Assembly (NCBI GenBank): GCA_963707505.1
Contig: CAVPQB010000002.1
Location: 32,001 to 96,000, forward strand
DNA length: 64,000 nucleotides
Direction: 5' to 3'
DNA from: an uncultured Gemmatimonadales bacterium
GTDB lineage: Bacteria; Gemmatimonadota; Gemmatimonadetes; Gemmatimonadales; Gemmatimonadaceae
In this document: one piece after another, positions 44,188-64,000 of the stretch
How positions within the stretch are numbered: position 1 is the stretch's first letter
How the letters are laid out: every line of letters begins with the position of its first letter
Program-made: the position numbers and the translations under genes
Notes under the pieces: generated by a model
The model's database searches: none
Told to the model about the DNA's origin: nothing
The model's input: the letters and a program-made list of their open reading frames with translations, nothing else

Positions 44188-44282
44188 ATCAACATATATG
44201 TTGATTATGCATTATTATACATATGAGTTTAAGAATCTTCTACCTGGAGGTTGAATCATGCAGATTAAATCTATAGATTGAA
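44188..44282. promoter_or_regulatory. Array of four 18-bp palindromic operators upstream of hipB
   Basis: ATCAACATATATGTTGAT (44188), TTATACATATGAGTTTAA (44215), TTCTACCTGGAGGTTGAA (44238), TTAAATCTATAGATTGAA (44265). Confidence 0.75.
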
Positions 44283-44304
44283 TTTATCCAACAGGAGAGC
44301 TCTC

Positions 44305-44577
44305 GTGGATTATCCCGTGCAGTCACCCGAACAGCTGGGCATCTACTTGCGCTCTCTGCGCAAGTCGCGTGGACTCACCCAGGGAGCACTCGGCAAAATG
44401 CTCGGAGTTTCTACGGCACGAGTCGCGTACATCGAACATCATCCTGGCACGGTCGGGAGCGGACAACTCCTTAAAATCCTGCACTTGCTCGGCGCACATC
44501 TCTACCTGGATGACGGAACGGCCAAACGTGACGCGCGCGCCAACACGCGGCAGCCAACAGCTGTAGGCGAGTGGTGA
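44305..44577 (+). CDS. hipB: HipB-like XRE HTH antitoxin
   Basis: AGGAG RBS plus GTG start; QLGIYLRSLRKSRGLTQ HTH; C-terminal Trp (GEW); overlaps the hipA start. Confidence 0.9.
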   Translation: MDYPVQSPEQLGIYLRSLRKSRGLTQGALGKMLGVSTARVAYIEHHPGTVGSGQLLKILHLLGAHLYLDDGTAKRDARANTRQPTAVGEW

Positions 44578-45961: not shown

Positions 45962-46026
45962 CAGAGGCACCGGTCGGAATCGAACCGACGAATAGGAGAT
46001 TTGCAGGTTTCGACCGGGGTTTGCGA
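45962..46026 (-). repeat. att-like repeat copy 1 containing the 3' half of tRNA-Cys(GCA)
   Basis: Minus strand CTGCAAA-TCTCC-TATTC-GTCGG-TTCGATT-CCGAC-CGGTGCC-T; 5' half absent; identical to 48902-48966. Confidence 0.88.
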
Positions 46027-46367
46027 CCTGTTGGAAACCTCTGCGATCGTCGGTGGCACCCGGTAGATATCGAGCTGACCTTTGCGATCCGTCAGGATAC
46101 GATGCGCGGACTTGCGCCTTTATGTACCCGAAAGGTGACGTGAGCCCCGAAAGCTGATCCAAAAGTTAGGTTGGTCCTCGAGCAAGGAGGACCGATGCGG
46201 AAGAGCAGATTTACGAACGAACGATCGGGGCGGCTATATCGCTTGGCGCGGGCTCAAAAAGTGATATAATTTACACATACCCACATTATTGTGATTATTT
46301 TTCGCGATTAGTGAATGAATTAGGGCTTTTTCGATTCGTAAGAACCGAAAGCACCAAAGGTGAATAA

Positions 46368-48314
46368 ATGTCTGATCGAAACACTATGCGTGATGGAATT
46401 TCACAGAATGTGATGTCTTTTCACGGACGTCCACTCCCCGAACTTGCCTCACCTGTCGGATACGCCCGGCTCATCCACCTGTATGACCTTCAGCTGCCCA
46501 TCCCGCCTAGGCTAGCTGCCGTAGCGGTGCGGCACCACCCACAGTCAACCGACGAATGGTTGTTGGTTACCCCCAGACACAGGCCCGAGGAGACGCTGGC
46601 AGGGCAGTTGGAGTTTGCGCTCAAGTGGGAGGGCGTTGATCTCGGCGTAATCAACGCTCTGACCATGATTGTCCCGCCGGTAGAATTTGAGGCACTCATC
46701 CGAGCAACGCCGACCGGCAGCTACGCACGAAGGATTTGGTTCTTATATGAGTGGCTCACAGGTCAAACACTGGCACTTCCGAATGCGGGGAAGGTCCGTG
46801 CGGTGCCAGTGCTGAACCCGGTCCAGCAGTTCGCCCTTTCGAAGGGGACCATGTCGACACGACATCGCGTCATCGACAACCTTCCCGGTACGCGTGCATT
46901 CAGCCCACTTGTACGAAGGACGCAGGCCCTCAACGCAGTTGCCGCAAAACAGTTAAACCGCCGGGCCCGCGAGGTGCTGGGCCGCACGCATGGCGACGTC
47001 ATCGCGAGAGCAGCTGCATTTCTGCTCCTGAGCGATAGCCGCTCGTCTTTCGACATCGAGGGCGAGCACCCTTCGCGCCAGAGGACTGCGCGCTGGGCTC
47101 AGGCGATCGGGCAAGCTGGCGCTCGCCCGTTGAGCATCGACGAACTCGAACGCCTCCAGCAAATCGTCATTGGCGATGCCCGCTTCGTCCATCTCGGACT
47201 GAGGGAAGACGGCGGTTTTGTTGGCGACCATGACCGTCTCACCCAGGAGCCATTACCCGAGCACATAAGTGCACGTGCCAAAGACCTCCGAGATCTACTC
47301 ACCGGGGTCGTCGACTATGTATCCCGAGCCGTGGCAGGAGGTCTCGACCCTGTAGTTGCAGCAGCAACCGCGGCGTTCGGCTTTGTGTACATCCATCCAT
47401 TCGAAGACGGCAATGGTCGACTACACAGATGGTTGATCCATCATGCGTTGGCGATCACCGGTTATAACCCGCCCGGCGTCGTCTTTCCGGTAAGCGCAGC
47501 AATACTTCGTGAGCTTGATACCTACAAGCGCGTGCTCGAATCGTATTCCAAGCCGCTACTTCCATACATCAATTGGGAACCCACCGAACGCGGCAACGTG
47601 AACGTGCTGAACGAGACGGCTCAATATTACCGATACTTCGATGCCACCGCGCATGCCGAGTTTCTGTATCAGTGTGTCGCTACGACGGTGGAGCGGGACC
47701 TTCCAGACGAAGTTGCGTATCTCGAAGGCTATGATCGATTCGCGGCACGAGTACAGCTGATTGTAGACTTGCCAGCTCGCATGGTCGAGCTACTGCATGG
47801 CTTCCTGCAACAGGGACACGGTCATTTTTCCAAACGGGCGAGGGAGAAGGAGTTCGCAGCACTTACGGAAGAAGAAGTCAGAAGCATCGAGCAACTCTAC
47901 GCGGACTGCTTCACGCGCGAGCCCGCATCAAACACTCCAGTAACTCAGGAGAACAACGCTGCGGCTGCATCCTCGCCGCCCTCTGCGGCTGTGCTCTCCC
48001 CACTCCCAATATCGTTGCAACGGGGGCAACTGGTCGCCATCGCACGGCAACTTGTCACTCCAGTCGACATTCCAGCGCTAATAGCAGAAGGAATTATCGC
48101 GAAAGCGCGCGGCGCATGGTACGAAGTGATCGATGGGAAACGGTTGCCAGAACACGTCACCGCGCAAATTCACGAGTTCCGATTAGAAGTGGGAGAACAA
48201 GGGCAGCAACGCCAATTCGTCAAGATTCCACCGGTTCGCAAGAAAGCCCTGCGTCTTTATCGAGAACTCACGGGAGAAGACGCACCTATCGTTCCCCGCG
48301 AACCACGCACATAA
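46368..48314 (+). CDS. Fic family protein with a C-terminal extension
   Basis: HPFEDGNGRLHR Fic motif, FALKWEG, YARRIWFLYEWLTG, SRSSFDIEGE; start uncertain. Confidence 0.92.
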   Translation: MSDRNTMRDGISQNVMSFHGRPLPELASPVGYARLIHLYDLQLPIPPRLAAVAVRHHPQSTDEWLLVTPRHRPEETLAGQLEFALKWEGVDLGVINALTMIVPPVEFEALIRATPTGSYARRIWFLYEWLTGQTLALPNAGKVRAVPVLNPVQQFALSKGTMSTRHRVIDNLPGTRAFSPLVRRTQALNAVAAKQLNRRAREVLGRTHGDVIARAAAFLLLSDSRSSFDIEGEHPSRQRTARWAQAIGQAGARPLSIDELERLQQIVIGDARFVHLGLREDGGFVGDHDRLTQEPLPEHISARAKDLRDLLTGVVDYVSRAVAGGLDPVVAAATAAFGFVYIHPFEDGNGRLHRWLIHHALAITGYNPPGVVFPVSAAILRELDTYKRVLESYSKPLLPYINWEPTERGNVNVLNETAQYYRYFDATAHAEFLYQCVATTVERDLPDEVAYLEGYDRFAARVQLIVDLPARMVELLHGFLQQGHGHFSKRAREKEFAALTEEEVRSIEQLYADCFTREPASNTPVTQENNAAAASSPPSAAVLSPLPISLQRGQLVAIARQLVTPVDIPALIAEGIIAKARGAWYEVIDGKRLPEHVTAQIHEFRLEVGEQGQQRQFVKIPPVRKKALRLYRELTGEDAPIVPREPRT

Positions 48315-48536
48315 ATTCGCATTGACACGACGAATTCGGTGCTCGGCCCATTATGCGCACGACACGAGTGGAGTATGTAGCGAGTCACAATCCGGACCGC
48401 TCTATCAACCCGAGACCGCGCCCTTGCAGGACCACACCCGCGCGCGACAGAGCGAAATACGCTTAGTCGTTTGCGAAGCCGAGCGTAAACTCAGATAGCT
48501 ATGCCACGTAGTCGGTGTTAGCACTTCCCCGCCCAC

Positions 48537-48580
48537 GCTTCGGGAGCAAGAGGTCGCCGGTTCAAATCCGGCCACCCGAC
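48537..48580 (+). pseudogene. 3' fragment of tRNA-Pro(CGG)
   Basis: GC-TTCGGGA-GCAAG-AGGTC-GCCGG-TTCAAAT-CCGGC-CACCCGAC; no intact D-arm upstream. Confidence 0.75.
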
Positions 48581-48901
48581 TGTGTAAGATGAAGCCTCAC
48601 GGCGCGCTGCCCGAGCCGTTCAGCAACTATTCAACCTTCCTTACGCTGTCTCAGGATTCGAGGACACCGGCGCCCGAGCTTCAAGGGGCCAGTCATCCGC
48701 ATTGAAGCCGTACGATGATTATCTCACGGCCGGGCCTCGCATCTATTCAGTCGAGACGCGACGCGCGTCGGATGTCAGACGCATTCACGGCGAGGGGAGA
48801 GGGGTTAAGGGAAACCATGGCTTCGTACCCTGTTTTTGCACCCAATCCCATTGCACAGCAATGGCGCTGCGCTCTAAATTGGCTTCCCACAATCACTTGC
48901 T

Positions 48902-48966
48902 CAGAGGCACCGGTCGGAATCGAACCGACGAATAGGAGATTTGCAGGTTTCGACCGGGGTTTGCGA
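48902..48966 (-). repeat. att-like repeat copy 2 containing the 3' half of tRNA-Cys(GCA)
   Basis: Identical to 45962-46026; followed by TGTACCC direct repeats at 49066 and 49077. Confidence 0.88.
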
Positions 48967-49443: not shown

Positions 49444-51264
49444 CTACATAGTTAAAGCGACTGCGTTCTGAGGGCTCAGTTGAAAGTCACCGTGCTTGGC
49501 TCGTGCACCTGATAGTTCCGCGTACAACCCTTCTGCTGTAACCAGTCGACGATGGGAACCTCGTTCTACAATTTCTCCGCCATCCACCACGCAGATTTCA
49601 TCGGCGTCCTCGATAGTACTTAACCGATGCGCGACGACTAAAACGGTACGGCCGACTCTAAGGCGTTCCATAGCGCGCTGAATAAATCGCTCACCGAGCG
49701 CGTCGATAGCCGACGTAGCCTCGTCAAATAACACGATCGGAGCGTTACGCAGGAATGCTCGCGCGATTGCGATCCGCTGTCGTTGACCGCCGCTCAGCGT
49801 CATTCCTCCCTCGCCGACGAGTGTGTTCAGCCCGTCAGGCAACTGCATTGCAAACTCGTTGACATATGCATCGGCCGCCGCCCTGTGGACCTCATCTTCT
49901 GTGGCACTAAGGCGTCCGTACAGGATATTCTCACGAATCGTTCCATAGAAGAGCTGGACTTCTTGAGGCACCAGAGCGATATGCGCCCGAAGAGATCTAA
50001 TTGTGAGTTTCCGAATATCAGTTCCATCAATGCAGATTGTCCCTTGCGATGGATCAGCGAAACGCAGGACTAAATTGACAATTGTAGATTTGCCCGCCCC
50101 GCTGACTCCAACGAGTGCGATTGTCTTGCCGGGCGACGCCACGAGCGTCACGCCGCGCAAGACTGTGCGCTGGTTCCCGTAACCAAACCATACGTTGTTA
50201 AAGCGAATTTCCCCATACGGATTGACTAAGACTCGTGCGTCCGAAGCGTCGACGACATCCGGCATCGCGTCGAGAAGTTCGAAGATGCGCACGGAAGCGC
50301 CGGTCGCTGCGCTTGTTGTGCTGTAGACTTGAGTCAATTCGGAGAAACACTGAGCAATAGTTTGCGAGTAAAAAAGAAAGGCAATCACATCTCCCGCAGA
50401 CAGTCGTCCAGCGATGACCTCTCGTCCTCCGAACCAAAAGAGCGCCACCAGCGAAAGGACCGAAATGAACTCGATTACCGCACCGAATACGGCGCCCGTA
50501 TATGCGACTCGACATGACTTTTGGAAAACCCCGTCAACTTCTTTTCGATATCGCTGTGCCTCGAACGGCTCGCGTGTGAACGCCTTGACAATACGGATCG
50601 ACACCAATGATTCGTGGGCGACCGCGCTAGCCTTTGCTAGGCCGTCTTGTACATCACGCGATAAGAACCGTACCCGCCGGCCAAAGTGCTTAGAAGTGAG
50701 AGTCGCAGCTGGGGCGCTTAATAACGTAATGACAGCCAGACGCCAATTGAGTGTGAGCATCACCCCAAGGGCGCCAACAAGTTTCGCAGATTGCAATATG
50801 GCGGCGATAATTACGTCGGTCACCACAGTACGGACGGCCGCAACATCGCTTGTGAGACGTGATGATAGGTCGCCTATACGTTCGGATGCAAAGTAGGACA
50901 CGCCGAGACTCTGCAAGTGTTCGTACACTCGCGCTCGAAGATCGGCGACGATGCGTTCACCCGTGGTTTTGAGCAATACACCACCGAGTGCCGAAAGGGC
51001 GCTTCGCGACGCAAGTAATGCGAGAAGCCAGACAGCGACGACAGTCAACTGCGCTGCGTTCCGATTCGTAAGCACTGAATCAAGTAACTTCTTCAAGCCC
51101 AGCGGAAAGACTAAGCCAACAAGGGCTCCGCTTACGGCAAGTGTTCCGGCCACGCTAATCCGTTTCCAATGACCGCGCCCAATGAAGAACAAGCGCCTCC
51201 ATGGCACCGTACTGTTCAGCGGGGAACGACGAGACTTAGCGTTACGAGCCTCATCGTTCGCCAT
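49444..51264 (-). CDS. ABC exporter (fused TMD-NBD, LanT-like, no C39 peptidase domain)
   Basis: TM domain, GDLSSRLTSD, GVSGAGKST, VPQE, LSGGQRQRIAIARA, FDEATS; directly downstream of lanKC. Confidence 0.93.
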   Translation of the reverse strand: MANDEARNAKSRRSPLNSTVPWRRLFFIGRGHWKRISVAGTLAVSGALVGLVFPLGLKKLLDSVLTNRNAAQLTVVAVWLLALLASRSALSALGGVLLKTTGERIVADLRARVYEHLQSLGVSYFASERIGDLSSRLTSDVAAVRTVVTDVIIAAILQSAKLVGALGVMLTLNWRLAVITLLSAPAATLTSKHFGRRVRFLSRDVQDGLAKASAVAHESLVSIRIVKAFTREPFEAQRYRKEVDGVFQKSCRVAYTGAVFGAVIEFISVLSLVALFWFGGREVIAGRLSAGDVIAFLFYSQTIAQCFSELTQVYSTTSAATGASVRIFELLDAMPDVVDASDARVLVNPYGEIRFNNVWFGYGNQRTVLRGVTLVASPGKTIALVGVSGAGKSTIVNLVLRFADPSQGTICIDGTDIRKLTIRSLRAHIALVPQEVQLFYGTIRENILYGRLSATEDEVHRAAADAYVNEFAMQLPDGLNTLVGEGGMTLSGGQRQRIAIARAFLRNAPIVLFDEATSAIDALGERFIQRAMERLRVGRTVLVVAHRLSTIEDADEICVVDGGEIVERGSHRRLVTAEGLYAELSGARAKHGDFQLSPQNAVALTM

Positions 51265-51272
51265 TATGCGAA

Positions 51273-54065
51273 TCATAGGCTCACCGTAGAACGCATACGG
51301 CTCCCAGAGACCTCCGTGTCGCAGGCCGCCACACCCACTTCGCTCCAACCTCGTGAGTGCACGCCGGTGTCGAACAATTCGTCAAGCATCAAGTAACGCG
51401 GCGTCGAAGGATACGTGAGCCTGTGGAGAAATAAGCCAATCCCCGCTGAACCCATCCCGTAGTCGCAGCTCACGCGAAGTAGTTCACTACCAGGAAATGC
51501 ATACCCCCCAAGGCGGTCCATTCGATGCTTTAGGATGAACTCGGCGAGATGGTAGGCATTCGTGCGATAGCGCTCGTCACCGAATACCGAATACATATCA
51601 AGTAGTAGTTCGCCGTATCCCGATGCTCCGTAGTCGTGCCAGAGTTTGTTGGTGTGGCGATTGGCGACGGTATGAGCACATTGTTCCAGGAAGGCGCGAA
51701 TGTCCTGGTCACCTGTCGCTCGGACGTATCTAAGGGCCGCCGTCCCTATTCCAGCTGTGCCGTGCCGGATATGCGGCGACTTCGGACCGCTGACGCGTGC
51801 ATTAACATTAGCAAACCAGATCAGTCGCGTATCAACTTCCTGCCGCTGGCCAATCTCGAAGTTCAGCGCTCGTCGCGCGAGGGCCATCCAGGCTTCCTCA
51901 CGTGTGGCGAGGCTGAGATAAGTCAGGAACAAGGCTATCCCACTCGCCCCGTGACCGTAACCAATCGGTGTTCCGCCGTCCTCGGGCCAGGAGGCAGCCG
52001 CGCCTTCGTACTTGGCAGATCTCGCGAGCGCGTTCCCGATAGTAATCGCAGTATCTAATCCACGCTCGTCGCCTGCCTTCAGCCAGTAGTGAAGGTTAGC
52101 AAGTCCCCATCCAGCTTGACCGTAATACAATCCCGTGACATCCGTTGACGTAGGGGATAGTGGGGTCCCGTGCGCGGCCTCAAATACGGTGCGAGCATCA
52201 TCATGCAGGCCCAAATCAAGAAGTGTAACTGCCAAACCGCCGAGACCCACGTGCAATCCACGAGGGGCAAGTCGTCGGCGCCAATTGCGACGAATCCACG
52301 TAATCGCATCATGGGGCACTTCACCTGATTCCCTCCACAGAAAGTATGCGGTACCGGCTGCACCGTATTGCACACTAATGGCGTTTGTGGAAAAAATATC
52401 TCCAGACGCGGGCCAGAGCCGGTCCGTCCGTTCCGGTGTGGCAGCGGCACGAATGTGCCGACTTAAGCCACGCAAAGTCTCCACCACGCCGTCCTGCAAC
52501 GCCTGGGATGGAGCTTCTCTTTCTGGCACAACGGGCCGTGGCTCATGGTCTTCCACACGTGCCGTCGACCGCAAAAGAGCCGTGTCCACCGAGTCAAGGA
52601 GCGCCATTGCCTCCCGCAGGTTCCACCGGGACGAAGGATCCTCATCTAGAAGCCCTTCTACCACACGAAGGAGGACATCAGGCAATTCGAAGTCCTTCAG
52701 CGTGAGCATTAGCGAATCGAGGACTCCACGTTTGTTCAACGGAAGGCCTGACGCTGAAAAAGCAATCATGTCAACAATTAAGGCACCGAGAGCATAATAG
52801 TCGTCTTGTGGGGATGGTGTCTTGCTACGAAGTTGTGCTTCTGACGCATAGCCGGTCGTCCAACCCGAAATCACCTTATCGTTCCGGTCTGTTTCGAAAG
52901 AAAGTTCCAAGTCGATGAATCGCACGTGTTCCGTATCAAGTGTGAACATGACGTTCGACTTGGTTAAGTCGCGGAGAATTACGTTGTGAGCGTGAACGAT
53001 CTCCAAGCCCTCCGCGATTTTCTTTATTGTTGCCCGTAATTTGTCGAACATGGCGGCAGGAGTTGTTTGCGCATTGCTGCCGTGTGTAAAGTTGATCGCG
53101 TACCCCCACAGCGACTCCGCATCCAATCGCTCTTGCACCAAGAACCAGTGCTCCCACTCCTGAAACAACTCGATGAAGCGTGGTGTGAAGCCTGTGGGTC
53201 CAAGCTTCGTCAGAATGCGTGCTTCTTTGCGAAGAATGGCGAGCGGATTGTACCCGGAGGCGCGCGTCCCGAGTCTCGGGCGAGTCTCACGAATTATTAC
53301 GTTCTTGCCGCTGTGCGTGTCAACGGCTCCATAGATGCCGCCGATACTTGAAAACCGCTCGGCACTTGTGACACGATAGCGATTGTTGAGAAGTACTCCA
53401 TCTTCACCCGGCTTAGTAATCGGCGGATCGTTCGAGACTGTGTCCGTCACCCAGGGAGGAAGTGCAAAGTACGCCTGCCGATCGTCACTCACACATTCTC
53501 CCGATGGTCCTACAAGTAACGGAGTGCGTGTGCCCGATGGTCCCACGAAAGGGCGCGGCGAATGTTCTCCATACCTGTAGAACACAACCTTACTATCGCG
53601 AAACGGCCGATCAGATAGGATGTAGGGTCCTTCCATGCCCGCGGTGAGAGTGCTGCAGGCCTCCAGCAGACTGAAAAACTGATCGTCGTCGCTTGGATAA
53701 ATCGTAATAAACTTTCCCGCACCAGTGCGTGGCCAGTTCTTGTTAAGGCTTAAATCCAACATGGCCGGATCAGAGCAGAACTTGAACGGAACGCTGCGTC
53801 TATTCAACTCCGGCACAATTTGCGCTAGAGTCGATATCGCCGTTGAGCTGACGGCCGAAATGTGGATTTTCCAACCCTGTTCAAGAAACTTGTGCCCTGC
53901 TGGGGTGCACTGGGTCCAGAAACCGACACAGTGTATTTCCCAAGATTCGTCGATGCGCTCACGAACAACATCGCCATACTCGCTCTTCGGCTTGTACTGG
54001 CTGATAGCTTCGAAATATTCCGAATCAAGCAACGTATAAAAGTAAGCTGGATTATCGCTAACCAC
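51273..54065 (-). CDS. lanKC: Class III lanthipeptide synthetase (lyase-kinase-cyclase)
   Basis: Lyase QGWKIHIS, GKFITIYP, GPYILSD, YRYG; kinase RFSSIGGIY, WEHWFLVQE, RDLTKSNV, FIDLE; LanC-like GxxG repeats lacking the Cys/Cys/His zinc ligands (HIRHGTAG, WHDYGASG, SCDYGMGSAG). Confidence 0.93.
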   Translation of the reverse strand: MVSDNPAYFYTLLDSEYFEAISQYKPKSEYGDVVRERIDESWEIHCVGFWTQCTPAGHKFLEQGWKIHISAVSSTAISTLAQIVPELNRRSVPFKFCSDPAMLDLSLNKNWPRTGAGKFITIYPSDDDQFFSLLEACSTLTAGMEGPYILSDRPFRDSKVVFYRYGEHSPRPFVGPSGTRTPLLVGPSGECVSDDRQAYFALPPWVTDTVSNDPPITKPGEDGVLLNNRYRVTSAERFSSIGGIYGAVDTHSGKNVIIRETRPRLGTRASGYNPLAILRKEARILTKLGPTGFTPRFIELFQEWEHWFLVQERLDAESLWGYAINFTHGSNAQTTPAAMFDKLRATIKKIAEGLEIVHAHNVILRDLTKSNVMFTLDTEHVRFIDLELSFETDRNDKVISGWTTGYASEAQLRSKTPSPQDDYYALGALIVDMIAFSASGLPLNKRGVLDSLMLTLKDFELPDVLLRVVEGLLDEDPSSRWNLREAMALLDSVDTALLRSTARVEDHEPRPVVPEREAPSQALQDGVVETLRGLSRHIRAAATPERTDRLWPASGDIFSTNAISVQYGAAGTAYFLWRESGEVPHDAITWIRRNWRRRLAPRGLHVGLGGLAVTLLDLGLHDDARTVFEAAHGTPLSPTSTDVTGLYYGQAGWGLANLHYWLKAGDERGLDTAITIGNALARSAKYEGAAASWPEDGGTPIGYGHGASGIALFLTYLSLATREEAWMALARRALNFEIGQRQEVDTRLIWFANVNARVSGPKSPHIRHGTAGIGTAALRYVRATGDQDIRAFLEQCAHTVANRHTNKLWHDYGASGYGELLLDMYSVFGDERYRTNAYHLAEFILKHRMDRLGGYAFPGSELLRVSCDYGMGSAGIGLFLHRLTYPSTPRYLMLDELFDTGVHSRGWSEVGVAACDTEVSGSRMRSTVSL

Positions 54066-54272
54066 GTGAATCTCGGCGTGAAGGTAAAGTCCTGCCTCGT
54101 GAGCACTTCGGTGCTGTGGATCGGCGAGTCATTGCGAGGTCTCGCCGGCAATACACTATCGCGTTTCCCTAAGGCAAACCCGGGGGTGAGCTACCGGAAC
54201 GCCTGTTAATCGCTGCGCTGCTTACGTACCGCGGGCGACATACGGCGTCCCAATAGCGCCCCAGAATCGAGG

Positions 54273-54401
54273 TCAGAACGAGGTCGTAGTGGAACTAAGA
54301 TTCGACGAGCAACTCTGGTCAGATACACAACTCACCCCGGAGCCAAGGCACGGATCTAGGGGCGACGAATCCAGAGTCTGAAGTGAAAGGACGATCGACA
54401 T
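54273..54401 (-). CDS. lanA: Lanthipeptide precursor A2 (42 aa; not in the ORF track)
   Basis: Manual translation MSIVLSLQTLDSSPLDPCLGSGVSCVSDQSCSSNLSSTTTSF*; AGGA RBS; VLxLQ leader motif; paralogous to A1. Confidence 0.92.
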   Translation of the reverse strand: MSIVLSLQTLDSSPLDPCLGSGVSCVSDQSCSSNLSSTTTSF

Positions 54402-54500
54402 GGTTGGAATTCCTGAAAGATGGTAAGAGATGATGGGGTTGATTGGTTATCGGAGTGACAACCAATCAACATTCCACCGCGTGCAACGAATGGTGATTTC

Positions 54501-54635
54501 TTAGTCGATCGTTGTATCTGCCGAACTAAGATGAGAGTCACAGCTGGCGTTAGAAGAGCAGCTGACGCTTGACAGGATGCAGGGATCCATACCTGGCTTT
54601 GCAGCGATCTGCTGTAGTGCTAGCACGTTATACAT
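54501..54635 (-). CDS. lanA: Lanthipeptide precursor A1 (44 aa)
   Basis: MYNVLALQQIAAKPGMDPCILSSVSCSSNASCDSHLSSADTTID*, the C-terminal part of track ORF 54501-54800; AGAGG RBS before ATG 54635; VLxLQ leader motif. Confidence 0.92.
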   Translation of the reverse strand: MYNVLALQQIAAKPGMDPCILSSVSCSSNASCDSHLSSADTTID

Positions 54636-55354
54636 AGGAGCCTCTCTTTGTTGGATTATGAAGAATTGCCTTAACAGAGAACACCGCCGCCGCCGGTTTT
54701 TCCGACAGCGAATGGATTGATCTATACCGTTGTGTCTGTCGTGCTGTTTTGGGAAATGCAGCTGTTGTGCGACTCGCAGCTGACATTCGACATCAAACAT
54801 GGATCAAGCGCCGAAATAGTTAGCTGTTGGAGCCTAAGTACGTGTATCATTGGTTCTGTTCCTAGTTAATTGTGAGTATTGCAGGCGATGCGTACCAACC
54901 GCGACTTAGGCGATTGTGGTATCCATACCACTTATCATTGAGACGCAGCTCAACTCCGAGCTACAGCTAACCGCTGAGAAATTGCATGGATCGAGGGACG
55001 ATTGATGCAACTGCTGAAGAGCCAGAACACTGTACACGTAACCTCCGTAGCTGATGGTGTGTGACCGCGCGGTATGACATGACGTGTCGTCATGTGTGCT
55101 CGGTCGGTTGAACGAATCTCACGCGATCTTGAAGTTCGCGTGATGCCAAAATCGGTCTAAGAGCTGCGTGTTCCGGCCAATCACAACAGACGCGTGGTTC
55201 GTTTCGGCGTCGTCATTCCTTTGTCGATCGGGTTGATTTTGATTGCATCTGGCCCGATGGCGTTCGTTCGTGCATACTTATAGATGCTGATGCGCTCCGC
55301 TCTGATCAGAGTGCGAATCGCAGCTCTATCCTCAGACGCTTGGCTTGGCCGACC

Positions 55355-56734
55355 ATGAACCAACCGGAGCCCGACCCGAACATCGGAAGCGGAAAGCGCG
55401 TGCTCGTCGCAGACGATCAAGTGCATGTCGTACACGCAATTCGGCTGATGCTGAAAACAGCGGGATATTCGGTCGATACGGCAACAAGTGTTGCGGAAGC
55501 ACAAACTGCTCTCGACCTAAAACACTACGATCTACTGTTATTGGACTTGAACTACACTGCAGATACAACGTCCGGGCGCGAAGGTCTTGATCTTCTGCCG
55601 TCGATTCACAGAAGACATCCGACCCTTCCAGTTGTAGTCATGACAGCTTGGGGTTCCGTCCCAAGCGCAGTCGAAGCCGTTCGCGCCGGGGCGGTGAATT
55701 ATGTGGAAAAGCCGTGGGACAACAGAAAGCTGCTAACGATCGTCGCGCTGCATACTGGACGGTCGATCAGTCACGCTGAGGCGGGCGCGCAGAGCGAAAC
55801 TGGTACTACGGCGTCTTTATTACCAGACATGATGTATCGGTCCGCGGCGATGGAGCGGATATTGGCGCTTGCCGCCCGCATCGCGCCGTCCGACGCCAAC
55901 GTTCTGATTACAGGCGAGCATGGTACCGGTAAAGAATTGCTTGCAAGGTGGATACACGTCAACTCTCCTCGGCGAAACGAATCCTTTATTGCTGTCAATA
56001 TGGGTGGCCTTCCAGAAGGCGTGGTCGAAAGTGAATTGTTCGGCCACGTGCGAGGTGCATATACTGACGCGAAATCGGATCGGACGGGGCGGTTTGAACT
56101 TGCGAACAAGGGCTCGCTCTTTCTAGATGAAATTGCCAATACCCCTCTATCGCTTCAGGCAAAGCTCCTGAGAGTACTGCAAACCGGTGACGTCGAAAAA
56201 GTGGGCGCGTCGACTCCCAGTCACGTGGACATCCGTGTGATCGCTGCCACGAACGTGAATCCGCGGCTTGAGGTCGTAGCAGGCCGCTTTCGGGAAGACT
56301 TGCTGTTCCGACTCAACACGATCGCGATTCATTTGCCGCCGCTTAGAGAGCGGCTGGAGGATCTGGAATTACTCGCAACCCATTTCTTGTTGCGTCACGC
56401 CGGACGGTACGGACGGACATTCTCCGGCTTCAGTGAGTCGGCACTTACTGCACTCCGGCAATATCCCTGGCCGGGGAATGTCCGAGAACTAGATCATGTA
56501 GTCGAGAGGTCTGTTCTTCTAGCGGACGGGACTCAAGTGGATGTGACTGATCTCATTCCCGACGCAACGGATCCACAGGTGGCTCTCGAGAATGGGACGC
56601 TCGATGACGTTGAGCGGATTATGATTCGCCGCGCCCTCGAGCGCGCGGGTGGAAACGTGGCTCAGGCCGCTAAGGCGCTAGGCGTCAGTAGAAGCGCGCT
56701 GTACCGGCGAATGTCAAACGAGCCTAATAAATGA
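55355..56734 (+). CDS. NtrC-family sigma-54-dependent response regulator
   Basis: REC (VADD, LDLNY, TAWG, EKPW), GEHGTGKE, ESELFGHVRGAYTDA, LFLDEI, FREDLLFRLN, WPGNVREL, Fis HTH. Confidence 0.95.
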   Translation: MNQPEPDPNIGSGKRVLVADDQVHVVHAIRLMLKTAGYSVDTATSVAEAQTALDLKHYDLLLLDLNYTADTTSGREGLDLLPSIHRRHPTLPVVVMTAWGSVPSAVEAVRAGAVNYVEKPWDNRKLLTIVALHTGRSISHAEAGAQSETGTTASLLPDMMYRSAAMERILALAARIAPSDANVLITGEHGTGKELLARWIHVNSPRRNESFIAVNMGGLPEGVVESELFGHVRGAYTDAKSDRTGRFELANKGSLFLDEIANTPLSLQAKLLRVLQTGDVEKVGASTPSHVDIRVIAATNVNPRLEVVAGRFREDLLFRLNTIAIHLPPLRERLEDLELLATHFLLRHAGRYGRTFSGFSESALTALRQYPWPGNVRELDHVVERSVLLADGTQVDVTDLIPDATDPQVALENGTLDDVERIMIRRALERAGGNVAQAAKALGVSRSALYRRMSNEPNK

Positions 56735-58104
56735 GGAAAGACAAGCGCATACCAAGTATCCCTTGGTCCGACCGTCGATTCGGACTCTTGGTCATCGCGA
56801 GCACTGCTCCTCTCGCGGTTCTTGCGTTCGGAGCGGTCGCGTATCTTGTTGATGAGCGCTTATTAATTCGCCAACACACACTATTCGCTGTGGGGACAGC
56901 CTTAGTCGTGGTGGTTGCATTATGGTTGTGGTCTATAGCACACCTTTGGCGTATCGTCATCTGGCCATTGCGAACGTTATCCAATGGAATTGCCGCGATC
57001 CGCCAGCATGACTATGCAATACGGCTTAAGCGAAACAACCCGAGTGATGCACTTGGCCTGGCGTTCGTTGAGCTCAACCTGTTAGCAGAAACACTGATGG
57101 ATGAGCGCACCCATGCGGTGGAGGCGCAGGCACTCGTGGCGACTGTATTAGAAGAAATTGACGTGGCGGTATTTGCATTCGATAGTGGTACACACATGCG
57201 ATTCGTGAATCGCCGCGCCGAATTGCTTCTCGGTCGAACGACCGGGGAGCTCACACTTTGTGCTGCGAGTGAGCTCGGATTGGGTTTTTGTCTTGAGGGC
57301 CCGCCGGATCGCACAATGACGATCCCTCTAGACGGAGGCTCCAGCCGGTGGAGAGTCCGACGCAGCAGCTTTCGCCAAGACGGTTTACCGCATCAACTGG
57401 TAACGCTTAGTGATGTCGGGTCAACACTTCGTGCAGAAGAGCAATCGGCCTGGCAGCGCCTGGTCCGCGTCCTCGGGCACGAAATCAACAACTCGCTTGG
57501 ACCAATCCGTTCTATTGCCGATACGCTTGCGTCCTTACTTGCTCGCACATCTCGACCGTTGGACTGGGAAGAAGATGCAACCGCCGGTCTAGAAGTCATA
57601 CGGGATCGGGCTACAGGCCTTAGTCGATTCCTTGAGTCATACTCTCTCCTCGCGCGCCTTCCTCGACCTTTACCCACAGTGGTTCGTATTGGTGACGTCA
57701 TCTCCCATGTGGTACGGCTAGAACAACGCGTAGCGATTGAGGTTCGCGGTGATCCTGAACTGCGGGTTCGCGTGGACAGTGATCAGCTTCAGCATTTGCT
57801 GATTAACCTAGTCCGGAATGCATGTGATGCCCTCGCAGCCGCACCAGGTCACATCCAAGTAGGTTGGCAACGCCACAACACCGATCTTGATTTGACAGTA
57901 ACGGATTCGGGGTCAGGCGTTGCCAATATGGCGAACCTCTTTGTCCCGTTCTTCACTACGAAAGGCACTGGATCTGGCATAGGACTAGCTTTGAGTCGAC
58001 AGATTGCAGAGAATCACGGAGGGACACTCACCCTCGCCAACCGAGCAGATTCACCAGGAGCCATAGCGCGACTGCTCATCCCAAACGCCGTCGTCAATGT
58101 GTAG
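56731..58104 (+). CDS. Sensor histidine kinase (HAMP-PAS-HisKA-HATPase)
   Basis: Two close TM helices, LGHEINNSL, INLVRNA, DSGSG, FVPFFTTK, GSGIGL; ATGA overlap with the regulator. Confidence 0.94.
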   Translation: MRKDKRIPSIPWSDRRFGLLVIASTAPLAVLAFGAVAYLVDERLLIRQHTLFAVGTALVVVVALWLWSIAHLWRIVIWPLRTLSNGIAAIRQHDYAIRLKRNNPSDALGLAFVELNLLAETLMDERTHAVEAQALVATVLEEIDVAVFAFDSGTHMRFVNRRAELLLGRTTGELTLCAASELGLGFCLEGPPDRTMTIPLDGGSSRWRVRRSSFRQDGLPHQLVTLSDVGSTLRAEEQSAWQRLVRVLGHEINNSLGPIRSIADTLASLLARTSRPLDWEEDATAGLEVIRDRATGLSRFLESYSLLARLPRPLPTVVRIGDVISHVVRLEQRVAIEVRGDPELRVRVDSDQLQHLLINLVRNACDALAAAPGHIQVGWQRHNTDLDLTVTDSGSGVANMANLFVPFFTTKGTGSGIGLALSRQIAENHGGTLTLANRADSPGAIARLLIPNAVVNV

Positions 58105-58534: not shown

Positions 58535-58682
58535 TTGATTGGTCCACGTGAAACCTAATCTTACATCGTCGCGCGATTTCTTAGATGTCGCTCAAATGGA
58601 GTCAGAGGATCACCGCGGCAACGCGAGTTCGACCTCGACTGGCGACCCTTTCGCAAGCCACCACCCGCACGCCATTGGCGTA

Positions 58683-59930
58683 ATGGATGTCCCGCGGACT
58701 CGCACCGGGACCGCAACGCGCCGCGCTTGGACAATTGGGGGAGGGGCCGCTGTTGTCATGTTGATTATTGCAGGTCTTACCACACGCCACTCTGGCACCG
58801 CATCGGTTGAGCGGTCAGCCATTTGGATCGATACCGTGCGACGTGGAGATATGGTACGCGAGGTGCGCGCGCCCGGCGTCCTTGCACCGGAGCGCTTGCA
58901 TATAATCGCAGCGGCGAGCCCCGGTCGGGTCGATATGATTTTCGTTCGCCCTGGAACCGCCGTTGTTGATTCGACTACGCTCGCCATTCTTAGTAATCCG
59001 GACGTGCAGCTCGAAGCAGTGAGTGCAAACGAACAAGTGTCTAACGCGGAGGCCGCGCTTGTTGCTTTAGAGACAAGCCTTGAAAGCCAGCGCCTAGCAC
59101 AGGTGGGCGTCGTAGCGAGTGCGCGCAGCAGCTCCACTAGCGCGGTCCGTACTGCCGCAGCCACAACAGAGCTGGGTCGACGAGGCTTTGCCGCGTCGCT
59201 CGATGTAAGCAAAGCAACGGACCAAGCTGCCGAAATGGAGACACGACTGAAGGCAGAAGAATCTCGCTTGAGGCTAATTGAGACGTCTACTCATAGTCAG
59301 CTTCAACTTCAACGTGACCAGATTCAACGCCTCAAAGACGTCGCCAAATACCAAACGGATCGCCTAGCGGCAATGCGGATTACCTCAGGGAGTAGTGGGG
59401 TAGTGCAAGAAATTCCGCTTTCGCTAGGGCAATGGGTCACGCCCGGGACCTTACTTGCGAAAGTGGTTGACCCTACCCGCCTGAAGGCCGTGCTTAGAGT
59501 GCCAGCGACCGAGGCTGATGAGATAACAATTGGCAAACGCGTCGTTGTCGACACGCACACTGGCAAGATACGTGGTCAAGTAAGCCGACTCGACCCCGGA
59601 GTAAGTGAAGGTACGGTGGGTATAGATATCACTTTCGACGATACGCTTCCAAGGGGGGCACGCGTTGATATGAGCATCGACGGATCAGTTGTAATCGATC
59701 GTATTGTAAACGCCCTTTACATGAATCGCCCAGCGGGCACGAGTGGAAATAGCTCCGCCACTGTCTTTGTTCTTTCACCAGATGGGAAGAGTGCTATCCC
59801 ACGCGTCGTTCAACTAGGACGACTGTCAGCAACAACCATTGAAGTTCTAAAAGGCCTTAATCCCGGGGACAAGGTAATTGTATCGGACATGAGCGCGTTC
59901 GCCCGCGCACAGGAAGTAGCGGTACACTGA
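58683..59930 (+). CDS. HlyD/MacA-family periplasmic adaptor
   Basis: MDVPR start, one TM helix, IWIDTVRRGDMVREVRAPGVL, GQWVTPG, IEVLKGLNPGDKVIVSDM; start uncertain. Confidence 0.9.
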   Translation: MDVPRTRTGTATRRAWTIGGGAAVVMLIIAGLTTRHSGTASVERSAIWIDTVRRGDMVREVRAPGVLAPERLHIIAAASPGRVDMIFVRPGTAVVDSTTLAILSNPDVQLEAVSANEQVSNAEAALVALETSLESQRLAQVGVVASARSSSTSAVRTAAATTELGRRGFAASLDVSKATDQAAEMETRLKAEESRLRLIETSTHSQLQLQRDQIQRLKDVAKYQTDRLAAMRITSGSSGVVQEIPLSLGQWVTPGTLLAKVVDPTRLKAVLRVPATEADEITIGKRVVVDTHTGKIRGQVSRLDPGVSEGTVGIDITFDDTLPRGARVDMSIDGSVVIDRIVNALYMNRPAGTSGNSSATVFVLSPDGKSAIPRVVQLGRLSATTIEVLKGLNPGDKVIVSDMSAFARAQEVAVH

Positions 59931-60043: not shown

Positions 60044-60796
60044 ATGGAGCATTCTATGCTAGTCAACGAAGTAACGCCGATCACACCGCAACTCGCCGAT
60101 ACTGTGTTAGTAAAGTTAACAAATGTAGGTAAGGTATTTTCCACTGATGAAATCGAGACTCATGCACTTTCACGAGTGCAGCTAACTATCGAACGTGGAG
60201 AGTACGTTGCCATAGCTGGTCCATCTGGGTGTGGCAAGTCTACTCTGCTCTCGATTCTCGGCCTGTTGGAACGACCATCATCGGGGGACTATTACTTGGA
60301 TGGGAACGACATTCGAAGTCTCGATCGTGCCCAACGTGCACACATCCGTAACCGCTACCTCGGGTTCGTCTTTCAGGCGTTTAACCTGATTGGCGATATG
60401 ACAGTGTACGAGAACGTTGAACTTCCGTTGACGTATCGTGAGAAGACGGAGAGTCGACGCCGTGAAGCGGTTGAAGAAGCCCTGGAGCGAGTCGGAATGT
60501 CGCACCGACAGAAGCACTACCCAGCTCAGCTGTCTGGCGGACAGCAGCAGCGTGTCGCGGTTGCGCGAGCCGTCACCGGCAAGCCGGCGCTACTTCTAGC
60601 GGACGAGCCAACCGGCAACTTGGATTCGACTAATAGCGAGTCCGTAATGAGTCTTCTCAGTCAATTTCACTCTCAAGGTACAACCGTGTGCATAGTAACG
60701 CACGATCCCCGGTTCGCTGCACATGCAACTCGAACTATTCGACTATTTGACGGCAATATCGTCGATGAGAAACTTGCGCACTCGGGACCCATCTGA
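60044..60796 (+). CDS. ABC ATP-binding protein (MacB/LolD type)
   Basis: GPSGCGKST, GFVFQAFNL, LSGGQQQRVAVARA, ADEPTGNLD, VTHD. Confidence 0.95.
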   Translation: MEHSMLVNEVTPITPQLADTVLVKLTNVGKVFSTDEIETHALSRVQLTIERGEYVAIAGPSGCGKSTLLSILGLLERPSSGDYYLDGNDIRSLDRAQRAHIRNRYLGFVFQAFNLIGDMTVYENVELPLTYREKTESRRREAVEEALERVGMSHRQKHYPAQLSGGQQQRVAVARAVTGKPALLLADEPTGNLDSTNSESVMSLLSQFHSQGTTVCIVTHDPRFAAHATRTIRLFDGNIVDEKLAHSGPI

Positions 60797-60930: not shown

Positions 60931-63369
60931 ATGCACGGGTGGATAAATGATACGCGGTATGCACTCCGGCGGATGCGGCGACATGGCGGTCTCATACTGA
61001 TCGCGACGGGAACGCTCGCGATTGGTATCGGGACAATTATTGCGCTTATGTCCATTGCACGACCGGTGATACTAGCACCACTACCCTTTCCTGATGGGAA
61101 CGCGCTAGTCGCGGTGAAGCAGAACAATCCGATGCTGGGAGGCATTAACTCTTTCTCGACGGGGAATTATTTGGCGCTCGTACGATCGACACATTCGCTT
61201 TCATCTGTCGGCGCATACACGCCGATCGATCGTACATTGACCGGGCAGGGAGCGCCTCGCGTGTTGCACGGTGCACGCGTAACGCCTTCTTTCATCGGGG
61301 TGCTCGGAGTGCAGCCGGTATCGGGTTCCACTTTCTCCCTCACGGATAGTATTCCAGGTGATCCGAGAGGTATGATCGTTGGCGACAACCCTACCGTTTT
61401 GCTCAGCTACGCAACATGGACCCAGGTATTTGGGCGCGGAGATGTAGTCGGTAGCAGCATTGCGCTTGATGGTAAGCCGTATCGAGTTGTAGGAGTAATG
61501 CCTGCCGGGTTTGCAATACCCGATCACGCTGACTTCTGGGTGCCGATGGTATTCGGAGCAATAGCGCCGGTAGATTGGGGAACGTTTTCCCTAGGCGTTG
61601 TTGGCCGACTTGCCGCTGGGAGTTCCCAAGCAGCTGCACAAACCGAGCTGAACACTATCGCTACGCATCTCCACGATCGTGGTGGTCGGATCAATCACGA
61701 CCTCACATTTCCTCTTACATCACTGAAAGAGAGCCTGCTCGGTGATTACGGCGTAGCTGTGATCGCGCTGTTATGTGTGTCCATTGCAATGCTCGTGTTG
61801 ATTTGCGCAAACTTAGGAACCATGCTGTTGGCTCAGGGGATTGAGCGGACAGGTGAGTTGGCGGTCCGTTCCGCGCTCGGAAGTCCTCGATGGCAGGTAA
61901 TGCGTCCTTTAATGCTAGAAAGTATGAGTCTAGCGATCGTGGGCGCTTTCGCTGGTTGTGCACTAGCGCCGGTAATTATTGCGGGTTTAGTCGCAGTAGC
62001 CCCTTCGGGAATTCTGACGGTTTGGAATATTCATACAGACATAACAGCAGTTGGCATCGGTGTTGGTGCAGCGATTATTAGCGGATTGCTCTTTGGCGTT
62101 GGGCCTGCTTTTCACCTTGCCAGAATGGCAGAAAACCCCCGTACGTTAATGCACGGCCGAGCAGTGGTAGGCAACCGAGTGCAGCGGCGGTTCCAAGGCC
62201 CACTCGTCGCATTGCAGCTGGCAATCGCGGTGGTTCTTGTCACTGGGACCTTTGGCCTCGGCAAAGTCTACCACCAATTGGTGACGCGCCCAATCGGCGT
62301 CGACCCGCAAGGCGTGGTCACCGCGGACCTGACCTTGCCTGGCGACCGATACTCTACGCCGCAAGCGGTAACCACCTTTGCTGCGACCGCTGCGCGCCAG
62401 TTTTCACACACAGGCGAGGTCAGTGATGTTGCCGTCGCCTTGAGGTTGCCTGTGCTTGATTCTGGAGGAGGGGTCTGGGCACACGTTGGCTCTAGTAGGC
62501 CAAAGGAGAACGACGGTTCGCCCGAAGTAACCTTCAATGTCATTACCGCTGACTATTTCCGCGTGCTGAATGTACCAATTCAACGCGGTCAGGCCTTCCA
62601 AGCAGACGCCGGAAATGAACCGAGCGTAGTGGTGAGTGAAAGTTTCGCTCGCTCGTTCTTCGGAACGTCCGACCCGATTGGTCAGTACGTGACACTAACA
62701 CCTTGGCCGACTACTCCACGCCGGGTTATAGGGGTTGCGGGCGATGTGTTACAAGGAGGAATGCGAGGGGCGACTCAACCGGCAGTATACGTAACATACG
62801 ATCAGGTGAAGAACTTTCCCCTTCCAACTATGCACCTGCTCGTTAAAGGGCGTAACAACAAAGCCGTGTCCCTCTCTCTAGTTCAGCAGCAACTCTTGCA
62901 GATAGATCCATTGCTTGCATTTGGAGTAATCGCGCCGCTCACTGCGCGTGTGCAAGCGTTGTCGCGTGACAACCTGGTCACATTGTGGCTTGTTGGAATG
63001 TTTGGGCTTTTAGGGCTCGCGCTCGCGAGCGCAGGCACCTATGCCGTTACATCGCTCAACATAGCCCAACAAACCCGGGAGATAGGAATTCGCGGGGCGC
63101 TAGGTGCCTCGCCGCGACAACTTTGGCATCTGTTGCTCGCGCGCGTGAGTCGGCGCGCCTTCATTGGAATTGGCTGCGGCGTGATAGCAACGTTTGTGTT
63201 ATACGTGACAACACCTCGCTGGATACCACTCGGGGGACGAGACCTGCTTTATGTCCTTGCGCCGACCACAATAGTATTGATTGGTACTTCGTTCGCCGCT
63301 ATCGCGATTCCGTTGTGGCGCGCCACGCAAGCGGAGCCGGCGGAAGCTCTGCGGCGCAGTGATGGATAG
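60931..63369 (+). CDS. Duplicated MacB/FtsX-type ABC permease (ADOP-like)
   Basis: DTRYALRRM, TLAIGIG, VVGVMP, ELAVRSALG, REIGIRGALGA, PAEALRR; two periplasmic/FtsX halves. Confidence 0.92.
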   Translation: MHGWINDTRYALRRMRRHGGLILIATGTLAIGIGTIIALMSIARPVILAPLPFPDGNALVAVKQNNPMLGGINSFSTGNYLALVRSTHSLSSVGAYTPIDRTLTGQGAPRVLHGARVTPSFIGVLGVQPVSGSTFSLTDSIPGDPRGMIVGDNPTVLLSYATWTQVFGRGDVVGSSIALDGKPYRVVGVMPAGFAIPDHADFWVPMVFGAIAPVDWGTFSLGVVGRLAAGSSQAAAQTELNTIATHLHDRGGRINHDLTFPLTSLKESLLGDYGVAVIALLCVSIAMLVLICANLGTMLLAQGIERTGELAVRSALGSPRWQVMRPLMLESMSLAIVGAFAGCALAPVIIAGLVAVAPSGILTVWNIHTDITAVGIGVGAAIISGLLFGVGPAFHLARMAENPRTLMHGRAVVGNRVQRRFQGPLVALQLAIAVVLVTGTFGLGKVYHQLVTRPIGVDPQGVVTADLTLPGDRYSTPQAVTTFAATAARQFSHTGEVSDVAVALRLPVLDSGGGVWAHVGSSRPKENDGSPEVTFNVITADYFRVLNVPIQRGQAFQADAGNEPSVVVSESFARSFFGTSDPIGQYVTLTPWPTTPRRVIGVAGDVLQGGMRGATQPAVYVTYDQVKNFPLPTMHLLVKGRNNKAVSLSLVQQQLLQIDPLLAFGVIAPLTARVQALSRDNLVTLWLVGMFGLLGLALASAGTYAVTSLNIAQQTREIGIRGALGASPRQLWHLLLARVSRRAFIGIGCGVIATFVLYVTTPRWIPLGGRDLLYVLAPTTIVLIGTSFAAIAIPLWRATQAEPAEALRRSDG

Positions 63370-63485
63370 CTGTATAGCAAGGCAATCAAATGTCATCGCC
63401 GGTTTCCGCTAACCCCTGGAGCGTCGAAATGCTATACCGCTTGGGATCAACGTGGTGCGGCAGTGTTACGAATACCCCAGGAGTT

Positions 63486-64000
63486 ATGTCTTTGGCAGTT
63501 AGACAGCTGAGTGCATTCGTTTGTACAATTCTCTTATGGCACGCATCTGTTACCGCCGCCCAAAGCGGCCCGCGATCGCTGACTCAAGCAACGGCTGAAT
63601 TCCCGTCTATAACGCAAATAGGAATCTGGCCCGATCGTTGGGATGATAGCGACGGTCTTGTGTACAGTGATAAGACCGCTGGCACAGACGAGTGGCGCTC
63701 TCTATGTATTCGCGATGGATCGTCGGTGCCACTTCTTGGACCTCGTAAATGCAACGCAAGCCCGATGTTATTCACCCACACTGATTTCGCATTCGGACCC
63801 GTGGTAGACGCCCATCAGAAAGAGTGCAAGATATGCCGATTCGACGCGTGGTACCTTGATTTCGCGAGCGACACGTCTATCGCTGTAAGACAGTCTTCCA
63901 GCTTATTTATTGTTAATCGCAGAACCGGCCGAGTCTTAGCCCGTGAACACATTCAGCCACACACCTGGTCGGCTCAAGACGCAGAGCATGGAGTAGCGGG
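63486..64000 (+). CDS. Secreted protein of unknown function (3' end runs off the window)
   Basis: AGGAG then ATG/TTG; open frame to the window edge: MSLAVRQLSAFVCTILLWHASVTAAQSGPRSLTQ..., with a signal-peptide-like N-terminus. Not in the ORF track. Confidence 0.65.
   Translation, partial: MSLAVRQLSAFVCTILLWHASVTAAQSGPRSLTQATAEFPSITQIGIWPDRWDDSDGLVYSDKTAGTDEWRSLCIRDGSSVPLLGPRKCNASPMLFTHTDFAFGPVVDAHQKECKICRFDAWYLDFASDTSIAVRQSSSLFIVNRRTGRVLAREHIQPHTWSAQDAEHGVA

Follow-up and report, generated by a model that had tools for sequence, protein, structure and literature searches.

Which way do the rings run in a class III lanthipeptide whose cysteines come ahead of their serines? The question is raised by a locus from an uncultured Gemmatimonadales bacterium (assembly GCA_963707505.1, contig CAVPQB010000002.1), within a stretch of 64,000 nucleotides that was analysed as a whole (hereafter the window, to which all plain coordinates refer). 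The locus holds a real class III cluster, to all appearances intact, on an island stranded at tRNA-Cys. Judging from the encoded sequences, it is likely a pathway of a Gram-negative enzyme clade that acts on Cys-first substrates and would close rings from Cys to a downstream dehydroalanine. The cluster proper comprises the following features.

55077..55143, no strand: two inverted repeats (55077-55095 and 55119-55143), immediately upstream of lanA1
54906..55037, minus strand: lanA1, precursor of 43 amino acids (GTG start with a GGAGG site)
54722..54850, minus strand: lanA2, precursor of 42 amino acids (open frame, alignment, tblastn)
54501..54635, minus strand: lanA3, precursor of 44 amino acids, A1 of the initial annotation (open frame, alignment, tblastn)
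54273..54401, minus strand: lanA4, precursor of 42 amino acids, A2 of the initial annotation (open frame, alignment, tblastn)
51273..54065, minus strand: lanKC, lyase-kinase-cyclase of 930 amino acids (domain profiles, alignment)
49444..51276, minus strand: lanT-type ABC exporter, permease and ATPase (ABC_membrane and ABC_tran)

The initial annotation had described an intact RiPP pathway, with two precursor genes, lanKC and an ABC exporter in a co-oriented minus-strand series. The domains confirm the enzyme and the exporter, and all frames are open, so that the pathway appears intact; the co-oriented lanA genes are also real, but they number four, two of them beyond the interval then covered. 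Those two precursors had gone unmentioned, as had the Cys-first register of the cores, the retained H705 of the enzyme and the genes for regulation, export and a peptidase on the opposite strand.

The four lanA peptides match one another with E values of 4e-5 to 4e-10 in tblastn searches of the whole genome, which gave no further lanA-like match with E < 0.1. Pfam and NCBIfam profiles recognise none of the four, and for lanA3 Atlas returned only leads under 0.9 (SapB/RamS at 0.83). Alignment shows 18 invariant columns: a V-L-x-L-Q leader motif, then D-P-C-x-x-S-x-V-S-C-x-S-x-x-S-C-x-S-x-x-S. The paralogues are 50-58% identical to A1 and keep every motif residue. The (I/V/L)LxLQ helix reported earlier for two leaders is thus found in all four as V-L-x-L-Q, which places them with the L-x-L-Q precursors of class III. 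The inverted repeats upstream of lanA1 are possible regulator sites. A search of the minus strand from 55037 to 55340, ahead of lanA1, yielded no good sigma-54 promoter site, and scans for sigma-70 promoters (3 versus 4.6 in shuffles) and terminators (8 versus 6.7) gave no excess over shuffles.

The LanKC enzyme joins RamC_N (PF25816), Pkinase (PF00069) and LANC_like (PF05147) domains in one chain, the three-domain architecture of class III. It scores 601.4 bits against the class III profile NF038151 (cut-off 575) and 572.4 bits, below the cut-off of 650, against the class IV (LanL) profile NF038150. Its best PDB match over the whole length is 8CAR, which we take to be the class IV LanL CuvL and which ranks ahead of ThurKC. 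In sequence alignment, R767, D811 and Y812 stand opposite the C, C and H of three LanL sequences and of 8CAR, and in the full set of 86 aligned sequences, Cys, Cys and His are present at these zinc sites in the three LanL rows alone. The predicted absence of Cys-Cys-His zinc ligands supports assignment to class III, and the alignment and the NF038151 score bear out the earlier call of a zinc-free class III enzyme. By alignment, LanKC nevertheless retains the catalytic His of LanC enzymes (H705), the catalytic Asp position being Gly645; this departs from the description of class III enzymes as missing that His (PMC8341899), as do 11 of 22 clade enzymes. The eight lyase residues named for ThurKC in PMC10604976 have as counterparts K66, H68, K95, K109, K118, D152, R164 and R196, invariant in 58/58 aligned sequences. 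In the kinase domain, R259 replaces the usual beta-3 Lys, and Arg occupies this position throughout the alignment, the Myxococcus fulvus enzyme included.

The check suggested by the initial annotation included a LanKC phylogeny. In trees of 80 and 96 sequences the enzyme falls in a Gram-negative clade (node support 0.991) with enzymes of Longimicrobium, Acidobacteriota, Myxococcota and Lysobacteraceae, marked by the cyclase signature K-S-P-H...G and N-K-[LI]-W. The boundary of this clade was chosen after the peptides had been seen, and its members are kin rather than independent samples. The near-duplicate loci L043, L048, L052, L053, L064 and L069 were left out of the trees, and L003, L051 and L072 were assigned to the clade by best hit. 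L153, in which 2/2 Cys fit the Cys-first motif described below, and L154-L158 fall outside the chosen node. The trees, rooted on two SapB-type enzymes, contained neither ThurKC nor CurKC; with the clade profile, the cyclase of ThurKC reaches 68 bits. The clade adjoins three LanL sequences as their sister (support 0.987-0.992), which tentatively places it beside class IV.

This position raises the possibility that the enzyme, as a zinc-free LanL descendant, links Cys and dehydroalanine across units into mixed or interlocked rings of the class IV kind. Besides the sister relationship, the close profile scores (class III 601 versus class IV 572) would agree with such an ancestry, as would 8CAR, with Cys at its zinc-ligand positions, being the best solved-structure match. 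Against it, the trees were built with FastTree, have long branches and hold only three LanL rows, and the number of core units in the clade is free to vary from 1 to 5, as would suit self-contained units. We regard such interlocked rings as unlikely.

The class III core motif is given as S-x-x-S-x(2-5)-C (PMC8341899). Each lanA core repeats C-x(1-2)-S-x-x-S three times in tandem, the mirror order. All three Cys of the window peptides fit this mirror motif, whereas one of three, never the first, fits the published class III motif. The window and 11 clade loci together yield 17 distinct precursors with 40 Cys. Of these Cys, 38 have x(1-2)-S-x-x-S directly after them, against a mean of 4.5 and a maximum of 13 in 5000 shuffled controls, and 9 agree with S-x-x-S-x(2-5)-C; S-x-x-S is absent upstream of the first Cys in all 17 precursors. 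The count of 38/40 excludes a probably spurious 5-Cys frame of L043 (an earlier count that included it was 36/43). A further 9 clade precursors came from loci fetched after the Cys-first idea had been written down: here 27/27 Cys fit the Cys-first motif and 10/27 the class III motif, and S-x-x-S precedes the first Cys in 0/9, although T-x-x-S does so in 3 of the 9 if Thr is admitted. Both sets omit the duplicates L043 and L048, and no precursor was found in L049, L050, L055 or L166. The arrays run from a single unit (L003 and L051) to 5, begin with Cys and end with S-x-x-S, the last Cys being followed by the motif in 25/26. L151 (4417-5314, downstream of lanKC) encodes precursors in which C-x-S-x-x-S recurs four and five times in tandem, and L042 (2-238) a myxobacterial-type precursor with a double-glycine-like segment ahead of its L-x-L-Q leader, like the M. 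fulvus peptide.

The order is reversed outside the clade, where [ST]-x-x-[ST] precedes the first Cys in 81 of 100 precursors and follows Cys in only 30 of 221 cases. The next group out (L154-L157) has the cyclase signature in common with the clade but not the motif, which fits 3/29 of its Cys. The precursors of these sister-group enzymes are very different Cys/Thr-rich peptides, some with six Cys and many aromatics; in another locus, L090 (2090-4250), one LanKC is accompanied by at least eight precursors that are hypervariable apart from a near-constant leader and end in C-x-C-x-x-N-N. Within the units, a TCN serine codon is followed by an AGY codon in 12/12 cases in the window and in 22/24 units of relatives, the order expected for a duplicated unit.

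Internal Cys of tandem arrays also fit S-x-x-S-C, so that Cys2 and Cys3, which directly follow S-x-x-S in all four window peptides, could close rings in the forward direction. If rings formed in the conventional direction throughout, each peptide would carry two lanthionines made through S-x-x-Dha-C (Ser21-Cys25 and Ser27-Cys31 in A1), Cys18 would be free, in a disulfide or separately bridged, and the last S-x-x-S would be left as dehydroalanines. Ser before Cys is the direction of most known lanthionines (PMC11251773), and class III motifs often yield a lanthionine with an internal dehydroalanine (PMC8341899). Yet neither the invariance of the first Cys nor that of the last S-x-x-S is explained by this arrangement, which offers no ring to the single-unit precursors, and in the M. 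fulvus peptide all three Cys were counted as ring-forming (PMC9576775). We consider it improbable.

The downstream direction that we favour would involve the following steps. LanKC would bind the V-L-x-L-Q leader of each of the four precursors, phosphorylate the core serines (at least six motif serines) and eliminate them, and then, without zinc, join each of the three Cys to a downstream dehydroalanine inside its own C-x(1-2)-S-x-x-S unit. Each peptide would then carry three rings in tandem; whether these are reverse labionins or, with one dehydroalanine left inside, reverse lanthionines is about equally probable. In the former, a mirror image of labionin, Cys would attack the next downstream dehydroalanine and the enolate the dehydroalanine three residues further. 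That these particular peptides carry true reverse labionins is a tentative proposal from their motifs, and somewhat doubtful. The labionins described in PMC8341899 include none with a ring as small as the C-x-S thioether ring, and a kept catalytic His favours lanthionine over labionin under a hypothesis put forward there. H705 thus points to lanthionine, although the clade enzymes that keep the His are only 11 in 22. An equally speculative extension is that the clade forms a LanKC subclass without a name, which arose from class IV through loss of zinc and makes mirror-image labionins in modular arrays of 1-5 units. We know of no clade member whose ring topology has been established. The literature searched, mostly open access, showed no solved Cys-first class III product (the supplements of PMC9576775 and PMC11251773 may bear on topology).

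The peptides would be exported by the coupled ABC transporter. Its probable start is the ATG at 51276, which overlaps the lanKC stop and gives 610 amino acids, rather than the TTG at 51348; an exporter homologue adjoins lanKC in 9 of 15 close loci. The Pfam domain search found no C39 peptidase domain in the exporter. Divergent from the lanA genes, the other strand carries these features.

55340..56734, plus strand: NtrC-like sigma-54 response regulator
56731..58104, plus strand: sensor histidine kinase (profile matches)
58539..59930, plus strand: membrane-fusion protein, HlyD/MacA-like (profile matches)
60044..60796, plus strand: ABC ATPase, MacB/LolD-like (profile matches)
60931..63369, plus strand: ADOP/MacB-like duplicated permease (TIGR03434 583.9, below the cut-off of 622.3)
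63390..64000, plus strand: start of an S9 (DPP IV-like) peptidase with a G-x-S-x-G-G motif, continuing past the window to G000:C2:97933 (contig C2 of the source genome, G000)

The NtrC-like regulator is a probable member of the cluster. The two-component system probably regulates the pathway and the MacAB-like pump probably exports the peptides or protects the producer, which would fit a secreted signalling or antagonistic peptide. Of 26 more distant loci, 19 have a similar regulator next to lanKC and 21 an ADOP permease; of 15 close loci (five of them shorter than 4 kb), the numbers are 1 and 4. Such modules are common in these genomes, and the co-location thus lends modest support. The leader is probably cut after the D-P that ends all four lanA leaders ahead of Cys1. 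S9 enzymes cleave after Pro in one class III leader (PMC10885120), and the S9 peptidase may be the leader peptidase; since 0/41 related lanKC loci have a counterpart, we keep it only as a candidate.

The cluster lies within a 31.6 kb low-GC insertion at tRNA-Cys, which also holds the divergent regulator, export and S9 genes, a CBASS-type operon and a Fic gene. Its left boundary and the neighbouring repeats are as follows.

48902..48946, minus strand: tRNA-Cys 3' fragment, att-like left end of the 31.6 kb insertion (repeats C2:112541-112583)
45962..46006, minus strand: second tRNA-Cys 3' fragment, end of a neighbouring insertion (repeat of the tRNA-Cys 3' end)
46260..48946, plus strand: Fic-gene cassette with a tRNA-Pro fragment (second copy, 93.6%, beside the intact tRNA-Cys, C2:109895-112583)

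The intact tRNA-Cys lies beyond the window (G000:C2:112541-112613), which itself contains no intact tRNA, only 3' fragments of tRNA-Cys and tRNA-Pro. The insertion is thus bounded by a direct repeat of the tRNA 3' end (48902-48946 and C2:112541-112583), as expected of an island, and flanked by a duplicated 2.7 kb cassette made up of a 648-codon Fic-domain gene, the tRNA-Pro 3' fragment and the tRNA-Cys end, which suggests repeated integration of related elements. The cluster has a GC content of 54.1% versus 61.6%, equally low in 2 of 650 intervals, and the GC3 of lanKC (0.577) is matched or undercut in 2.4% of 539 long frames. The corresponding site of the congener G015 agrees in both flanks (86-91%), in the att end (97% over 220 bp) and in the CBASS-Fic block (95.6%); where the source genome has the lan genes, G015 has an integrase and other cargo. 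Atypical composition and absence from G015 again mark an island. Among 61 relatives, full-length lanKC was found in the source genome alone; one further genome (36% identity) turned up among 301 of the family, and of 401 genomes from the phylum one exceeded the cut-off. The repeats, the low GC, the absence in G015 and this sparse distribution support the horizontal acquisition proposed in the initial annotation; of the tRNA-integrated island that it described, the bounding tRNA-Cys repeats hold up, but the window has no intact tRNA and the insertion no integrase that we could find (PF00589 only on contig C4, no PF07508 and no match to the G015 integrase, in a genome 83% complete with the insertion contiguous).

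Several neighbouring genes may be recorded here. The CBASS-type operon (G000:C2:104447-109487, L001) encodes a SAVED effector, a SMODS nucleotidyltransferase, a ThiF/E1 protein and a JAB protein. Between it and an AraC gene lie a DUF4209/DUF7380 protein of 657 amino acids and a 432-codon frame without Pfam or NCBIfam match (G000:C2:100432-104282). Just outside the outer tRNA-Cys fragment, at 44278-45953 of the window, a HipA-like kinase (PF07804, PF13657) with a small HTH-like frame upstream is probably a HipBA toxin-antitoxin pair. The corresponding G015 region (G015:C3:509258-556161) combines the integrase with apparent heavy-metal transport genes, judged from N-terminal sequences only. Split LanKC systems with L-x-L-Q precursors also occur in the host phylum (G016:C11:67500-72844; G225:C237; G360:C1:722159-724967), the lyase-kinase and the cyclase being separate genes in either order.

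As no integrase was found on the insertion, the cluster might be silent or in decay, a passenger of a stranded island; with every frame open, four paralogues that keep all motif residues at 50-58% identity to A1, and other strains' indels avoiding the coding frames (those at 54697, 54854 and 54903 all fall in spacers between lanA genes; two metagenome runs, 12 of 13 indels listed), this is very improbable.

Taken simply as class III in a Gram-negative host, the cluster would be ordinary. The initial annotation stated that characterised class III systems come mostly from Actinomycetota and Bacillota, but this overstates the novelty of the host group, as systems from Myxococcus fulvus and a coral Acidobacteriota have already been expressed (PMC9576775, PMC13083261) and 8000 scored candidates included 665 homologues. 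Neither a Gram-negative host nor the C-x-S-x-x-S motif is new alone. The link of this enzyme clade to tandem Cys-first cores was not found in the literature searched, nor was any solved topology. The mirror-order cores point to ring chemistry not yet mapped, and mirror-image labionin, if true, would be a cross-link without a solved example in that literature. With its mirror-image motif, its tree position beside class IV and a catalytic His in half of its members, the clade may serve as a natural test set for Cys activation by zinc-free class III cyclases and for the choice between lanthionine and labionin, both posed as open questions in PMC8341899 and PMC10604976. As the six-residue unit occurs in one to five copies, the enzyme could also serve as a modular ring-installing tool.

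The nearest expressed relative is the 'LanIII' system of M. fulvus (precursor WP_046714561.1, LanKC WP_083560159.1), expressed in E. coli in 2022 (PMC9576775). Its enzyme equals our P0076 at 50/52 residues compared by eye; P0076 belongs to the same clade and is 44% identical to the window LanKC. Like the window peptides, its precursor has an L-x-L-Q leader motif and three C-x-S-x-x-S units, and its core has no Ser ahead of Cys1. For the product, 7 dehydrations and 3 (methyl)lanthionines were reported, the ring topology being left unsolved in the available text of PMC9576775; should every one of the three Cys take part in a ring, Cys1 would have to bridge downstream. Since this clade member is functional in E. 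coli, topology should be accessible by standard methods. The two systems differ in that the M. fulvus leader is longer and double-glycine-like and one precursor was tested there, whereas four precursors are encoded in the window, all with D-P ahead of Cys1 and with a first unit of the C-x-x-S kind.

The aci cluster of a coral Acidobacteriota MAG is similar as described: AciKC was called class IV by antiSMASH yet is without zinc ligands, Ser recurs at every third core residue, seven dehydrations were reported, and regulators and ABC transporters lie nearby (PMC13083261). It differs in its glycine-rich tails, and clade membership of AciKC would follow from this description rather than from sequences. 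The C-x-S-x-x-S motif itself was proposed computationally in 2024, as 'reverse labionin', for Streptomyces subfamily C, with no experiment in the accessible part of PMC11251773, the only source for such lanthipeptides in the literature searched. The motif is the same as in the window; subfamily C, however, consists of single-Cys peptides from clusters with class II and III enzymes, and the accessible part of PMC11251773 has no tandem arrays or Gram-negative clade.

The subclasses III-a to III-d (ThurKC, PneKC, TherKC and CurKC; PMC13504147, PMC11330476, PMC10604976) resemble the window system in their three-domain zinc-free synthetase, lyase residues and hydrophobic leader motif. Their cores place Cys after S-x-x-S, whereas those of the window place it first. 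The III-b and III-c cyclase motifs, as published in the available text of PMC11330476 and PMC13504147, were not seen by eye in the LanKC translation; the window clade has K-S-P-H...G and N-K-[LI]-W instead, plus R259. Finally, class IV LanL, represented by 8CAR, gives the best whole-length structure match and shares the kept catalytic His; it differs from the window LanKC, in which all three zinc ligands are replaced (R767, D811 and Y812) and Gly645 takes the place of the catalytic Asp.
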